Shown: in pieces, positions 48,295 to 54,040 of the stretch
How the letters are laid out: each line of letters begins with the position of its first letter
Position numbering within the stretch: position 1 is the stretch's first letter
Source of the DNA: a virus
Length of the DNA stretch: 64,000 nucleotides
IMG/VR virus record: IMGVR_UViG_3300047496_000172
Location: 1 to 64,000 of that record
Reading direction: 5' to 3' (one strand)
Made by a program: the position numbers and the translations under genes
Notes under the pieces: model-generated
Database searches by the model: none
What the model was told of the DNA's origin: nothing
What the model saw: the letters and a program-made list of their open reading frames with translations, nothing else

Positions 48295-48370
48295 TCCGCA
48301 ATTTTGTGTTAATGTTAGTTTACCATAGCAAAAAAGGTTTTACAATGCCATTTCGACGGAGAGAAATATA

Positions 48371-49159
48371 ATGTCTAAAGTGACCTGGATTCTTGAACGC
48401 GATGTTTTCGCGGAAGTTTGCTTCAATGAAATGATCGATCATTTCAAGGCGAACGATATTCCTTATCGTGTCGTCAGGATCATTCCATTTATTCATGAAA
48501 TTGAAGGAAAGGTTCCGCAGGTTTCCGATCCGGTTGTCGTCTATGGCAGCATCGGTGTGCAAACCCTGGCTCAACGCCATGGATGGGTTCCTGGCGTATG
48601 GACTAATGACAATTTCGCATCTGGTGGTTCGACCGAGATTTCTGATCTTCTGGTAAACGGTTCTTTTGAAATTATGAAGTTGAGCGAAGTCGCCGACAAG
48701 GTAATGCTCGATGAATTTTTCATCAAACCCAATAGCGACAACAAAGAATTCGCTGGAATGGTTATTACTCGCGAAGAATTTGGTGTTTGGCATGCTAAGA
48801 TGCTCGACATCAACTATTTGGAAACCGATGACTTTGATGTTATCGTGGCGCCATATCGAAAGCTTGGTTGCGAATGGCGAGTGGTCGTAGTGAATGGAAA
48901 GATCAGTTCAGCATCGATCTATCGGCAATACGGTATCGTCAAGCCAGAACGTCATATTATTCCAGAAGTGGAAAGCATTGTAATGGAAGCGCATAGCCGA
49001 TTTGTGCCCGCACCAGTATATGTAGTAGACGTAGCACAGGTCGGAGATGAATACAAAATCATCGAATATAACACCTTCAATTCAGCCGGTCTGTATGCTT
49101 GTGATGTTGGAAAGATCATCGATGACATTAACGCTTTCCTTTTAGATCAAGCTCAATGA
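48371..49159 (+). CDS. ATP-grasp domain protein (DUF4343/R2K-like)
   Basis: FIKP...K.F.G, EWR..VV, YVVDV and IIEYN....G.Y. Confidence 0.8.
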   Translation: MSKVTWILERDVFAEVCFNEMIDHFKANDIPYRVVRIIPFIHEIEGKVPQVSDPVVVYGSIGVQTLAQRHGWVPGVWTNDNFASGGSTEISDLLVNGSFEIMKLSEVADKVMLDEFFIKPNSDNKEFAGMVITREEFGVWHAKMLDINYLETDDFDVIVAPYRKLGCEWRVVVVNGKISSASIYRQYGIVKPERHIIPEVESIVMEAHSRFVPAPVYVVDVAQVGDEYKIIEYNTFNSAGLYACDVGKIIDDINAFLLDQAQ

Positions 49160-49166
49160 TCTAAAT

Positions 49167-49382
49167 ATGCTCATGATAAAGTGGTCACCATTGCTGGTTT
49201 TTGGACCTATCACCGCTTTGCTGGTGGCGATGGTGATCATTCATTGGAGCAAGAAAAATTATGGTCAAGCCATGATTTATGCCACTATACTTTCTTTTTG
49301 GGTAATTTTTGAATTGCCCTTAGTTGGATGGATGGCAATACATCTTCATCAACAATTAGCTGGTCTTTTTCATTGGAGCTAA
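49167..49382 (+). CDS. Small membrane protein
   Basis: Two hydrophobic helices. Confidence 0.55.
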   Translation: MLMIKWSPLLVFGPITALLVAMVIIHWSKKNYGQAMIYATILSFWVIFELPLVGWMAIHLHQQLAGLFHWS

Positions 49383-49383
49383 A

Positions 49384-50079
49384 TTACCAAACTTGATCCA
49401 TATACCCTTTCATGAATTTTTTAGCTGACATAGACTTTCCTTTTTCGTGATTTACAACGGTATCATCTTGAAATCTTAGCGTAAAATTTTTATCAGATCG
49501 CATTCCACTACCGACTTGGTTTTTTCTATCTTTTGCGATAGCGGAATATTTTTCTGAATTACTTCTTTCGTCGAGTGTTTTTATGATCGCTTCTTTTGCG
49601 TCTCGTAGATTAGATATTCTTTCTCTTCCTTGTCTTGCTTCTATAATACCAGTTGGTATATGAATTAATCGACAAGAGTTGGGGTGACGATTTCGATGTT
49701 GGCCGCCATTTCCGGTTCCAGAGAACCATTCCACGCGAAAATCGTCATCAGATCGTTTTGAATAAATGTCTGAAGTTGTTGTTTCAGGATTTATGACAGC
49801 ACAAGTTATAGTTGAGGAATGAACGCGTCCTCGTTTTTCAGTAGGAGAAACACGCTGGGTTCTTATTCCACCAGAACCATTATGTAAAATTTCGAGATCG
49901 GCGCCAATAATTTCGATTGCAACTTCGGCATACCCTGCATCAGATGGGCGTTCTCTGACGATGCGGGACTTTCAACCTTTACGAGTCGCCAGCTTTAAAT
50001 AAGCCTTCATCAAATCAGCACAAAACATACTCGCGTCGAGTCCGCCTTCACCTGATCGTAATTCCACAATGCGAATCAT
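49384..50079 (-). CDS. Class I peptide chain release factor homolog lacking domain 1, with in-frame UGA at codon 36 (231 aa if read through)
   Basis: MIRIVELRSGEGGLDASMF...RKG*KSRI...QRVSPTEKRGRVHSS...GNGGQHRN in a single frame; SD AAGGAG and TAAATA upstream. Confidence 0.88.
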
Positions 50080-50185
50080 AATAAAATCTCCTTCGTATTT
50101 TTATTTAGCATTATAGGTTGACTTTTGTCAAGAAATTAGTTAAAAAATAATATGACAACCTTCCGGCAAACCATGGATTTTTTAA

Positions 50186-50623
50186 ATGGACAGTAATATT
50201 ACATACGAAGAGTTTGAAGAACTCTGCCGTGAAGCTATTCGCGATAAAGAAAAAGCGTATTGGTTAGCTGAAGAAGGTAATTTGAATCGATACAATCCTA
50301 CTGTCGATCTTCAATATTATACTGAAGGTAGATGGTCTACTGGCGGCCAGGGTGGCGGTAGTTGCTGGGATGAAGGTGAATCTCATTACTACGCGTTAGA
50401 AGGTGAGCAAGAGCCAAAGGACGAATATCTATCCTTGTTTTTGTTAAAAATCGTTCCAGAATTGACTTACGCGCAATTTGTAAATCTTGAAAAATCTGAA
50501 TTTTTTGAGTATTCTACGGAATATCAAAACGAATATTACGGAAATTATACGACATATGGTATTCGTAAGTTCAACTTACGAACTCTCTATGATGTTTTAA
50601 AACAGATGTCTGTAAATGGATAG
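50186..50623 (+). CDS. Hypothetical protein, paralog of 50616
   Basis: Shared W..GG..GG.CW and EYYGNYT.Y. Confidence 0.7.
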   Translation: MDSNITYEEFEELCREAIRDKEKAYWLAEEGNLNRYNPTVDLQYYTEGRWSTGGQGGGSCWDEGESHYYALEGEQEPKDEYLSLFLLKIVPELTYAQFVNLEKSEFFEYSTEYQNEYYGNYTTYGIRKFNLRTLYDVLKQMSVNG

Positions 50624-51442: not shown

Positions 51443-52200
51443 AGTTTGATCAATCCATTTAATGTTACTATATTAGTAGCCGAAGCGGGGTCTGTCCCAA
51501 ATACTATTTGGTTATAACCACCAAACCCAAGAAATCCACTAGATTTAGCGACGCTATAATATGGTAAAAAATTAATACCATCTCCTGGCCATCCTATGTA
51601 TATATTTGTTCCATTATCATGAAGTTGATACCAAGTTGGAACATACATAAAATCGCCACCTGTTGCCAAATCATATGAATTTAGACTTGTAGGATTATCG
51701 TATTTTTTATGAACTACTCGATTGTTAGTTTGTGGGGCGATACCTTCTATTTTACCGGAAACACTGTCACACCATCCAATCATCATTAGCGGACCACCAT
51801 CACCACTGGTGCTAATAAAATTCACAAGAAAATTGACTGTATAAGGTGGAGTTGGTGCTGTCATAGCTAATAAATGTAATCCATCATTAGAATTTCCTAT
51901 TATGCTTACACCAGGAAGACCCGCAGTAGCATTTGCGGTAGATTGGTTTATCCAGCCTATATCAAAAGTAGCAAGATTAGGAACAGGAATGCCAGCAGCA
52001 ACGTTTGCTATTGCGGCATTGGTATAACTTTCAGAAGTAGCAATAGCATAAGTCACTTGAGTATTAGTATAGTTGGTTGCTGCCAAATTTATTTGATCAG
52101 GCGTGATTTTCACATTCACGCCGCCTTGGACACCAGCCAAGTATTCACCACCGCCTAGAGTTGATGCATTCGCAAATGCTGAAATTTTTGTGTTAGCCAT
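51439..52200 (-). CDS. Tail fibre/receptor-binding-like protein
   Basis: MANTKIS...GVQGG.NVK fibre-type N-terminus and a beta-rich body. Confidence 0.6.
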   Translation of the reverse strand: MANTKISAFANASTLGGGEYLAGVQGGVNVKITPDQINLAATNYTNTQVTYAIATSESYTNAAIANVAAGIPVPNLATFDIGWINQSTANATAGLPGVSIIGNSNDGLHLLAMTAPTPPYTVNFLVNFISTSGDGGPLMMIGWCDSVSGKIEGIAPQTNNRVVHKKYDNPTSLNSYDLATGGDFMYVPTWYQLHDNGTNIYIGWPGDGINFLPYYSVAKSSGFLGFGGYNQIVFGTDPASATNIVTLNGLIKL

Positions 52201-52964
52201 TATGTTACCTCTAATTCAATATATCCAGAACCATCTTCAAGTTCATATTCGCCACTACCATCCTCCAATTCCATTCCAAATGATTCTAAGCTTGGAGCAA
52301 TAGGAGTCCCATACAATCCTATATTTACCTTCCTCAAAAATAAATTAACATCTGAAACGGTATTGTTGGTGACACCCAACATGTAATACGGTCCATCTTT
52401 GTCTTGACTCAATGCACTAATTGAAAAAGTTAAACTATCGACATCGATGATGGTATTCTGAGTATCTTGAATAACGGTTGAATTTCCTGCGGCCATTACT
52501 TGAACAACACCGGATTTTGTTGGTGAACTACCATCTATGTAAAAACCATGATATTCAAATTTTGCAGAAATTATATTTCCATCTAAACGAGTTGGAATGG
52601 CAAGAGTGTTACTATAATCTGAAAAAAGAATAGGACCACTATACAAACCCGGAATAACCGTAGGGACGAAGAAATCGTTTCTATTTTGATCCATATAAAA
52701 TTGATTAAATAGTTGCTGATTTACTGGACTTGCTTCGGTCAAAACTTCAATATTTTGATACGGAAAAGTCGTTCTCTGATAGTTTATATCTCCAACATTT
52801 GGAGTATGGCCTATAAACATTCTACCAGTGTCGGTCGAAAATGCAGGCTCTCCGACCGCCAAGGGTTTATTAAAAACGGGTGGAGAGGTTGAAATGGGTG
52901 AGCCAGGAAGTAAACTCTCTTTACCTCTTCTGAATTTTATTTTTCCAACCAAAATTATAGACAT
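52200..52964 (-). CDS. Tail-associated protein with an Mtd-N-like module
   Basis: IKFRRG....L..GEPAFSTDT.R.FIG. Confidence 0.65.
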   Translation of the reverse strand: MSIILVGKIKFRRGKESLLPGSPISTSPPVFNKPLAVGEPAFSTDTGRMFIGHTPNVGDINYQRTTFPYQNIEVLTEASPVNQQLFNQFYMDQNRNDFFVPTVIPGLYSGPILFSDYSNTLAIPTRLDGNIISAKFEYHGFYIDGSSPTKSGVVQVMAAGNSTVIQDTQNTIIDVDSLTFSISALSQDKDGPYYMLGVTNNTVSDVNLFLRKVNIGLYGTPIAPSLESFGMELEDGSGEYELEDGSGYIELEVT

Positions 52965-53011
52965 AGTGTATTTATGATTGTTTAAATTTTATCATTAAAT
53001 ATAGAGGTAGT

Positions 53012-54040
53012 TCACGATATTACTATTCGTCTCATATATAGACTTATGTTGTTTAAAGTTAAATTTAAGATGTTCAACATATAATATGTGCCGCCTCCAT
53101 CAGATTGAGCAGAACCTACTGAAAATTGTAAACTCGTGCTTCCATTCAATAAATTAAAGTCAGATACAGAACTTTGATCGTATTGATTGGCTAAAATTCG
53201 TAAAGTGCCATTTTCCAATGGTGAATATGTCGAGCCTATAACTTTGAAAGCATGGTATTCGAATGCGGCAGAAACATTCGCTCCATAAATTTTGGAAGGA
53301 ATAACTGGAATATCTGTTACATCGGAATATGTTATTGGGCCATTATAGTTTCCAGTTATTACAGTTGGAGGGAAAAAGGCATCTTGATTTTGATTTCTTA
53401 CGAAATGATCGAATAATTCCTTCATTCTTGGAGAAGTCTCGGTCAAAACTTCTATATTTTGATATGGAAAAACAAGACGATGATAATCTACATCGCCGGG
53501 TTTAGGGGTATGACCTATAAGGACTCGACTGGTATCCGTGGTGAAAGCCAATTCCCCGACATCCAAACTTTTTGGGAAAACTATTGGAGGAAATCCCTTT
53601 GGAACTCCTGGTAATTCTGCCTCGGTTCCTCTGCGAAATTGAGTTGATTTTACCGTAATTTGATTGGCGACGATGTTGTTTACGACTTGTGATATACCTG
53701 AACCAAAAACCGTAGAAACTCCGTGAGATGATCCTACTCCGGAATCATGAATAACAGTAGCATTAGCATCTCCTGATGCTACAGCAACACCATTACTTGT
53801 TCCATTAGCAAATTGATAGGTATTTAAAATTACATAAGCAACAACTTTTGAAATTCTTGTGAAGTCAGGTTGAAATCCGGTTGCAACATAGCCAACAGAT
53901 TTATAAACGTGAATTTGTTCGTTATTACCATCAGGCGTAGTTACGGTATACCCTACAACTTTAGGGACTGTTAAAGTATTTGATTGCGCTCCTTGGGCAG
54001 CATAACTTACTATTTTTGATGTTGAAATATAATCTACCAC
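53012..54040 (-). CDS. Tail-associated protein with N-terminal xKVVxY repeats and an Mtd-N-like module
   Basis: SKIVSY/PKVVGY/YKSVGY/SKVVAY repeats; QFRRG...GELAFTTDT. Confidence 0.65.
   Translation of the reverse strand: MVDYISTSKIVSYAAQGAQSNTLTVPKVVGYTVTTPDGNNEQIHVYKSVGYVATGFQPDFTRISKVVAYVILNTYQFANGTSNGVAVASGDANATVIHDSGVGSSHGVSTVFGSGISQVVNNIVANQITVKSTQFRRGTEAELPGVPKGFPPIVFPKSLDVGELAFTTDTSRVLIGHTPKPGDVDYHRLVFPYQNIEVLTETSPRMKELFDHFVRNQNQDAFFPPTVITGNYNGPITYSDVTDIPVIPSKIYGANVSAAFEYHAFKVIGSTYSPLENGTLRILANQYDQSSVSDFNLLNGSTSLQFSVGSAQSDGGGTYYMLNILNLTLNNISLYMRRIVIS

Follow-up and report, generated by a model that had tools for sequence, protein, structure and literature searches.

An in-frame UGA kept at a conserved tryptophan position in a short RF1-type release factor gene of huge phages and its relatives

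The first 64,000 nucleotides of the IMG/VR virus record IMGVR_UViG_3300047496_000172, which we call the window, carry on the minus strand a gene for a short peptide chain release factor (RF) of the RF1 type, interrupted by a single in-frame TGA at codon 36. The record as a whole has 106,578 bp at a GC content of 38%, and with a CheckV completeness of about 18% it represents a fragment of a huge phage genome. A first-pass annotation of the window had described one frame running from the ATG at 50079 through this TGA, in the context GGT TGA AAG, to the GGQ motif and a stop at 49384, and the sequence reads exactly so: the frame is open for 231 codons except for the one TGA. The open reading frame (ORF) list made under genetic code table 11 contains two pieces of it only, one of 35 aa (50079-49972) and a GTG-initiated one of 116 aa (49734-49384). 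Over 49300-50200 the window agrees letter for letter with an independent Logan assembly of a moss metagenome, the run from which it probably comes. The comparisons set out below lead us to regard the interrupted gene as a genuine case of a recoding device in a release factor of phages, one that is widespread and seems not to have been described before.

Relatives were collected in three scans with an alignment of homologues, one each of IMG/VR, the JGI metagenomes and one genome per GTDB species, and were found encoded in 501 contigs of IMG/VR, at least 543 in the JGI metagenomes and 84 of the GTDB species genomes. We analysed 246 loci, made up of up to 80 per scan, five from a first IMG/VR scan and the window's own, and located in each the codon aligned to residue 36 by tblastn. 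That codon is TGA in 170 loci, which represent 143 distinct genes (74 on viral contigs, 60 in metagenomes and 8 in bacterial genomes) whose products range from 62% to about 44% in identity with that of the window, and it is never TAA or TAG. Apart from a few distant bacterial matches, TGG stands in the column only in three close relatives, each of which has a different recoding signal five codons further on; no uninterrupted frame occurs among the close relatives, and no locus that we read as DNA combines TGG with an open frame. The first-pass annotation had taken TGG throughout the close homologues as the sign of a recent nonsense mutation or a sequencing error, and what the relatives have instead, about 170 of them, is the same TGA, a displaced TGA or a CTT TAG frameshift site. 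It had also looked for purifying selection on both sides of the stop, and this is present: Nei-Gojobori dN/dS (the ratio of nonsynonymous to synonymous substitution rates), pooled over 777 pairs of 75-97% identity, comes to 0.076 over the 35 codons that precede the TGA and to 0.107 over those that follow, figures that are descriptive because the pairs are not independent. Both parts are therefore translated in one frame, and since the same column is TGA in 170 loci with purifying selection on either side, the internal TGA is, on these comparisons, a built-in gate and not damage.

Gene callers and RefSeq truncate, split or miss the genes of this family. In a collection of 5.8 billion proteins most relatives are called with a cut N-terminus, from the first start codon past residue 36, and four such proteins are exact C-terminal parts of TGA-bearing loci that we analysed, while about 20 others, P0002 among them and none on a contig longer than 2.5 kb, are listed at full length with a W, possibly through gene calling under code 4. 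RefSeq misses the Bosea gene, with a "hypothetical protein" called on the opposite strand, and splits the Variovorax gene into a "hypothetical protein" and a "peptide chain release factor-like protein". Among GenBank phages megablast gave no match, and tblastn gave only matches at the level of canonical prfA or prfB, below 38% identity. Carriers of the gene include isolates of bacteria with the standard code (Thalassospira xianhensis, Jiella sp. and Gemmobacter caeni), in which the TGA is kept, and large plasmids of Bosea and Rhizobium also carry the gene with its TGA. Canonical RF1 and RF2 are present in each of the four carriers searched for them, namely these three isolates and Nannocystis punicea. 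The copies in T. xianhensis MCCC 1A02616 and G. caeni DSM 21823 are proviral. The Bosea copy (L276, 8001-8687; plasmid pBSY19_1 of Bosea sp. RAC05) has Cas6/RAMP/helicase genes on one side and a HipA toxin-antitoxin pair on the other, and a family member whose first 60 codons include two in-frame stops, found in the bin of a Methanobacterium metagenome-assembled genome (MAG; L182), may belong to a mis-binned phage contig.

With the TGA read as tryptophan, the product matches the C-terminal half of Pfam PCRF (E 9e-21) and RF-1 (E 4e-13). It scores 161.4 bits against the NCBIfam model for prfA (TIGR00019), 84 bits for prfB and 39.6 bits for prfH (TIGR03072), all three below the cut-offs of the models, which are curated at 423.25 bits for TIGR00019 and 166.65 bits for TIGR03072. 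The prfA match spans positions 115 to 342 of a model 361 positions long; domain 1 is thus missing, just as had been proposed, and the alignment to RF1 in the PDB begins at about residue 113 of the Escherichia coli protein. Sequence comparison with the PDB finds RF1 at E 5e-34, RF2 at 3e-19 and PrfH at 1e-7. An AlphaFold model built with 20 homologues as input reaches a pLDDT (mean predicted per-residue confidence) of 90. Compared by fold, it comes closest to structures of RF1 on the ribosome, at a TM-score (template modelling score, TM) of 0.86-0.88, with RF2 slightly lower and PrfH at 0.65. The gated position is Trp in E. coli and Thermotoga maritima RF1, and the TGA does fall, as first suggested, on a tryptophan position of RF1. 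By sequence and predicted fold, then, the product consists of domains 2-4 of a class-I release factor of the RF1 type, with a GGQ motif and no domain 1. Truncated RF1 and RF2 lacking domain 1 reportedly retain codon-specific release in vitro and lose their response to RF3.

The residues that read the stop codon are largely those of RF1. Counted from the alignment column, the tripeptide of the 143 genes is PPT in 134, SPT in 6, PPN in 2 and PLG in 1. Among the third-base readers, Gln75 is present in 143/143 and His87 in 142/143, a His-Thr pair stands in 127/143 with His-Ser in the window's member, and position 88 is near-invariantly Thr or Ser. The EGG-x-D tip is likewise near-invariant, and GGQ is kept in 140 of the 143. 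The hybrid SPT motif singled out by the first-pass annotation does stand in the window's own protein, as PxT with the first Pro changed to Ser and not as the SPF of RF2, but it is not a trait of the family. Serine at the first and threonine at the third position of the tripeptide are each reportedly permissive residues. An altered stop specificity arising from SPT is nonetheless speculation, and for the window's member only, because PPT occurs in 134 of 143 genes and SPT in six and because the readers are RF1-like.

Table 1. Features of the release factor gene and its surroundings in the window (positions count from the first letter of the window)
Feature	Position	Strand	Remarks
Short RF1-type release factor gene	49384..50079	-	231 codons if the TGA at codon 36 is read as Trp; product P0001; TAA at 49386-49384
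In-frame TGA, codon 36	49972..49974	-	conserved RF1 Trp position; context GGT TGA AAG
Upstream part, 35 sense codons and TGA	49972..50079	-	first strand and start of the recognition helix (EGG-x-D tip)
Stop-codon "tripeptide" position, SPT	49840..49848	-	RF1 has PxT and RF2 has SPF here
GGQ catalytic motif	49699..49707	-	residues 125-127
Shine-Dalgarno-like AAGGAG	50088..50093	-	8-nt spacer to the ATG at 50079-50077; read from the sequence
Promoter-like TTGACA (50131-50126), 18 nt, TAAATA (50107-50102)	50102..50131	-	read from the sequence; a sigma-70 consensus scan gave no score there
Candidate hairpin CCCGCATC ... GATGCAGGG	49933..49967	-	starts 5 nt past the TGA; weak in the window's member

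The start of the gene is preceded by the Shine-Dalgarno (SD) sequence that the first-pass annotation had named, whereas for the promoter that it proposed only the letters can be confirmed (Table 1). A directly follows the internal TGA in 102 of the 143 genes, G in 21 and C in 20, and T in no case; 12.7% of the sense codons in the same genes begin with T. Leucine at the +1 codon is encoded by TTR in 0 of 19 cases, against 29-40% TTR elsewhere. The codon before the TGA specifies Gly in 139 of the 143, and GGC or GGT make up 93% there as against 67% GGY elsewhere in these genes. The true terminators of the same genes are TAA in 128, TGA in 12 and TAG in 3. U after a stop codon reportedly gives the strongest termination in E. 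coli, and, as far as these base counts tell, this strongest context is avoided at the internal TGA, as a leaky stop would have it.

Downstream of the stop there may also be RNA structure, which we treat as a lead. The 40-60 nt past the TGA are more stably folded than shuffled sequences, at a mean z of -1.5 and with 30-41% of the sequences below -2, compared with -0.1 and -0.5 for two control segments from the same genes. In the subclade nearest to the window a hairpin begins about 5 nt past the stop; among its 17 sequences, from which the helix was itself defined, 73% of positions are paired as against 62% in shuffled sequences and 29-44% with slid partners, and both sides have changed in 7/9 pairs. 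A search of 49300-50200 in Rfam gave no match.

The genetic code of the window's phage is, by every count that we made, the standard one, as the first-pass annotation had held. Crude genes called under table 11 cover 92% of the 106-kb record, and of 167 of them 48 end with TGA and 101 with TAA; the release factor gene is the sole convincing TGA-interrupted gene in the record. The same is true of two complete genomes of relatives. One, of 578,292 bp (G001), carries the closest homologue among the loci analysed (62% identity) and is covered to 92% under table 11, with TGA ending 371/764 genes; the other, of 523,836 bp (G005), is covered to 90%, with TGA ending 315/808. Because TGA thus ends 29-49% of the genes in these three, no genome-wide change in its meaning has taken place. 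No tRNA(UCA) is among the three tRNAs of the 106-kb record or among the 69 of G001, and a tRNA-Sec was found in neither. For the idea of a Hirsh-type tRNA-Trp, G001 is uninformative: both of its tRNA-Trp(CCA) genes show C11:G24 and an anticodon stem of 5 bp. The same genome (contig of L008) has two tRNAs with a CUA anticodon, of the amber-suppressor type, at 109999-110155, and TAG still ends 175 of its 764 genes. In G005 (contig of L050) a transfer-messenger RNA (tmRNA) with the tag ANDNVFAMAA lies at 182959-183462.

Stops that have moved, or that have turned into frameshift sites, occur in the wider family. Two metagenome relatives have TGG at codon 36 and a TGA five codons downstream (ACT TGA C and GAT TGA A), and a relative in a Hahella MAG has CTT TAG at that same later place, after which the reading continues in the +1 frame. 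A bacterial sister clade of about 50 loci (Nannocystis, Kofleriaceae, Polyangia, Thiobacillus, a Chloroflexota MAG and others; L186, L189, L194, L223 and so on) has a cassette consisting of an SD-like GGAGG or GGGAG, a spacer of 3-4 nt and CTT TGA C, with the rest of the protein in the +1 frame. The cassette sits at the homologous codon or some 10 codons further on. In some ten of these loci CTT TAG stands instead of CTT TGA, and TGA and TAG alternate between close relatives; according to published reports the prfB frameshift motif never uses TAG. A Cupriavidus plasmid, Variovorax and three MAG contigs (two of Gammaproteobacteria, one of Rhodospirillales) have their in-frame TGA at about codon 46-50. 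Recoding is missing from four loci of two MAGs, one of Myxococcales and one of Planctomycetota. The Myxococcales MAG has three unrecoded copies (L178, L179 and L180), with Tyr at the position of the gated Trp. In a quick maximum-likelihood tree (LG+G4, support by SH-aLRT, the Shimodaira-Hasegawa-like approximate likelihood ratio test, rooted on RF2), canonical RF1 adjoins a family clade that is itself supported at 99%. Within the family, 39 rows group as a readthrough clade and 56 as a frameshift clade, again at 99% for either. The family has thus kept an early recoded stop and changed the mechanism.

Directly downstream of the release factor gene in the window, on the opposite strand, lies a gene for an ATP-grasp R2K protein (262 aa, 48371-49159, plus strand), overlapped on the other strand by a 157-aa ORF (48320-48793, minus) that has no family match. 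At 52200-54040 on the minus strand two adjacent proteins of 254 and 342 aa, with weak matches to Mtd_N (the major tropism determinant N-terminal domain), may be tail-fibre proteins. Within about 3 kb of the release factor gene there is no RtcB, its neighbours being the ATP-grasp R2K protein and unknowns. The suggestion in the first-pass annotation that the factor acts in ribosome rescue finds no support here, since the stop-reading head is intact and the similarity to PrfH is weak.

RF2 is the only canonical factor that reads UGA, and UGA is the stop that is misread by tRNA-Trp(CCA). At codon 36 the RF2 of the host would compete with a Trp-inserting tRNA, which would generally be the near-cognate tRNA-Trp(CCA) and, in relatives that encode one, a phage tRNA(UCA). 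Termination by RF2 would release a 35-aa peptide, while insertion of Trp would yield an active factor of 231 aa with the very residue that RF1 has at this position. Given such a competition, the output of factor would be low and would rise when UGA termination is slow relative to demand. With its RF1-like reading head the factor would probably serve UAA and UAG, and in taking over part of the UAA load it would relieve RF2. We consider it likely that the gene encodes a third kind of class-I release factor of the bacterial type, an offshoot of RF1, that the UGA is read as Trp in competition with RF2 and that the output of the gene in this way reports the capacity for UGA termination; the gate, at least, probably ties synthesis of the factor to the efficiency of UGA termination. 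The first-pass annotation had made the full-length factor dependent on low RF2 activity, which is an inference; as a whole, that annotation's interpretation is partly supported.

Several observations weigh against this reading. A factor of the RF1 type does not read UGA, so the feedback would close only indirectly, through the sharing of UAA, which is a weaker logic than that of prfB. The use of both TGA and TAG in the sister clade fits a general sensor of termination, or a factor that reads both codons. Structure beyond the stop is uneven: RNAalifold found no single consensus structure for the 17 relatives of the nearest subclade, and the window's own hairpin (-11.7 kcal/mol, z -0.98) is not significant. 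The tRNA census of the window's phage covers 106 kb, and the missing 82% or so of the genome may hold other tRNAs. Finally, G005 has a tRNA(UCA) at 190515-190591, 77 nt long, with G73, a Trp-like anticodon loop and an anticodon stem of only four pairs with a C-A mismatch at the top, that is not a tRNA-Sec (normal 7-bp acceptor stem, short variable arm), and it is without a tRNA-Trp(CCA). In some phages, therefore, the gate may be opened by a phage tRNA.

Taken to its end, this last point leads to a timer set by the phage itself, in which UGA is decoded by a phage opal-suppressor tRNA(UCA) and the factor is made only after that tRNA, as part of a staged change in stop reading and not as a monitor of the host's RF2. 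The tRNA complement of G005 is what such a phage would have, and Borges et al. (10.1101/2021.08.26.457843) describe modules of suppressor tRNA and RF1 in TGA-recoded Jade phages. We nevertheless think a timer unlikely, given that G001 has the closest homologue and no UCA tRNA, that the TGA is kept in the standard-code isolates and on the Bosea and Rhizobium plasmids, that G005 itself still ends 315 of its 808 genes with TGA, and that the part of the window's genome in hand, about 18%, lacks the tRNA. Alternatively, the factor might itself terminate at UGA, being omnipotent or RF2-like, perhaps in the SPT variants, and so shut off its own synthesis directly as in prfB. In the phage clade no gating stop other than TGA occurs, the sister clade has a prfB-type cassette in which TGA and TAG alternate among close relatives, and, with its Ser and its Thr each reportedly permissive, SPT could in principle accept UAA, UAG and UGA. 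Set against this are the PPT of 134 of 143 genes with Gln75 and Thr/Ser88 kept as third-base readers, and a sequence and fold nearer to RF1 than to RF2; moreover, misreading by Trp is possible only at UGA, which is enough to explain why the stop is invariantly TGA. Direct autoregulation is to our minds distinctly improbable. Nor do we put much weight on a plain attenuator, by which the UGA would sense nothing and merely hold a potentially harmful factor at a very low level, a fraction of a percent to a few percent. An excess of release factors does lower fitness in Bacillus subtilis (PMC12421855), and the position of the stop varies, from codon 36 or 41 to about 46-50 in the sister clade. A weak promoter or ribosome binding site would have sufficed for that purpose, yet the AAGGAG of the window is strong, and the prfB-type cassette of the sister clade points to a coupling with termination efficiency.

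The remaining explanations have far less room. Reading of TGA as Trp under genetic code 4, genome-wide or in blocks, would account for a stop at a Trp position and for the short-contig database proteins called full-length with W. It is very improbable, and for the sequence in hand it is refuted: a single gene is convincingly interrupted in a record that table 11 covers to 92%, TGA ends 48 of its 167 genes, and in G001 and G005, covered to 92% and 90%, TGA is the commonest or second commonest terminator. Selenocysteine insertion, directed by a downstream hairpin resembling a selenocysteine insertion sequence, could draw on the enrichment of local RNA structure past the UGA, but the homologues have Trp, Tyr, Phe or Leu and never Cys at this column, Rfam gave no match, the tRNA(UCA) of G005 is not Sec-like and G001 has none, and in relatives the stop moves or turns into a frameshift site; we attach practically no credence to it. 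A pseudogene, a recent nonsense mutation or a sequencing error might be suspected from the way in which gene callers and RefSeq split or miss family members, and has next to no chance of being right; this too is refuted, by the TGA shared among 170 loci, by dN/dS of about 0.1 on both sides of it and by the identical independent assembly.

Competition between RF2 and a Trp-inserting tRNA thus remains the reading that we prefer, and it may be part of something larger. The family could be an old lineage, the third among class-I release factors of the bacterial type and devoid of domain 1, whose expression is almost always tied to stop decoding, by UGA readthrough in phages and alphaproteobacterial elements and, in Myxococcota and other bacteria, by a prfB-like +1 frameshift at UGA or UAG. 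Certain members, the SPT variants perhaps, may read all three stops, and phages would use the factor to buffer or take over termination when RF2 is limiting. We offer this extended version tentatively and regard it, taken as a whole, as doubtful. Whatever its fate, the gene is a natural, compact UGA-readthrough cassette for use in bacteria and a route to testing whether phages monitor the termination capacity of their hosts, and in a release factor lacking domain 1 the codon specificities of PPT and SPT are directly measurable.

We found no published description of the family or of its recoding in the literature searched, and it goes unmentioned in Al-Shayeb et al., Borges et al., Burroughs and Aravind, and the RF-H study of Baranov et al. 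Among described proteins canonical RF1 (prfA, TIGR00019) is the nearest, sharing PCRF and RF-1 domains, GGQ, the Gln and, in most members, His-Thr readers, Trp at the gated position and the fold, and adjoining the family in the tree. Unlike RF1, the window's factor is without domain 1, scores 161 bits where the curated cut-off is 423, has PPT or SPT as its tripeptide and is gated by recoding; Prince et al. report no programmed recoding in prfA. PrfH, also called RF-H (Baranov et al. 2006, PMC1586002; PDB 9mor), is likewise a class-I paralogue without domain 1, but the similarity is weak (39.6 bits over the GGQ domain only, a PDB E of 1e-7, TM 0.65), and PrfH is without the canonical motif for stop reading and is paired with RtcB.

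The closest regulatory counterpart in bacteria is the +1 frameshift of prfB (PMC12421855, PMC3711429), where a class-I release factor gene is also cut early by a UGA specific to RF2 and the full product also depends on slow termination; the elements of the prfB cassette (PMC3711429) recur in the bacterial sister clade at the homologous codon. The window's gene differs in that its downstream part continues in the same frame with neither a CTT nor an internal SD, so the event here would be readthrough and not frameshifting. It differs as well in that the protein is RF1-type, without domain 1, and probably does not read its own gating codon, and in that the site lies in domain 2, that of prfB in domain 1. 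Viral precedents come from Mimivirus R726 and Megavirus mg280 (Jeudy et al. 2012, PMC3521657), in which a viral release factor is made only if an internal UGA in a weak context is read through, Trp being the residue proposed; those factors are of the eukaryotic/archaeal eRF1 type, with reading domains not homologous to the present ones, need an additional frameshift and belong to viruses of amoebae. The autoregulation of plant eRF1 (PMC5397192) is another case of a release factor whose level depends on readthrough of a stop read by the termination machinery, though in a eukaryote, at the gene's own terminator and coupled to nonsense-mediated decay, and not at an internal gate.

Readthrough control of a release factor gene had been proposed before prfB was sequenced and was then dropped, since no bacterial release factor gene showed it. 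As Atkins et al. 2016 (PMC5009743) recount, an early in-frame UGA with near-cognate readthrough had at one time been an idea for RF2; it is absent from all RF2 genes, and a counterpart with RF1 and UAG is likewise unknown. The present gene resembles that hypothetical design in its early in-frame UGA, its continuing frame and, if our preferred reading is right, its near-cognate readthrough when termination is slow, and departs from it in that an RF1-type paralogue is gated here by UGA and not by UAG. The family displays this readthrough-gated design in hundreds of phage genomes, and its sister clade met the same problem with a prfB-type frameshift. If the third-lineage interpretation were true, the family would provide the first natural case of a bacterial-type release factor autoregulated by readthrough.

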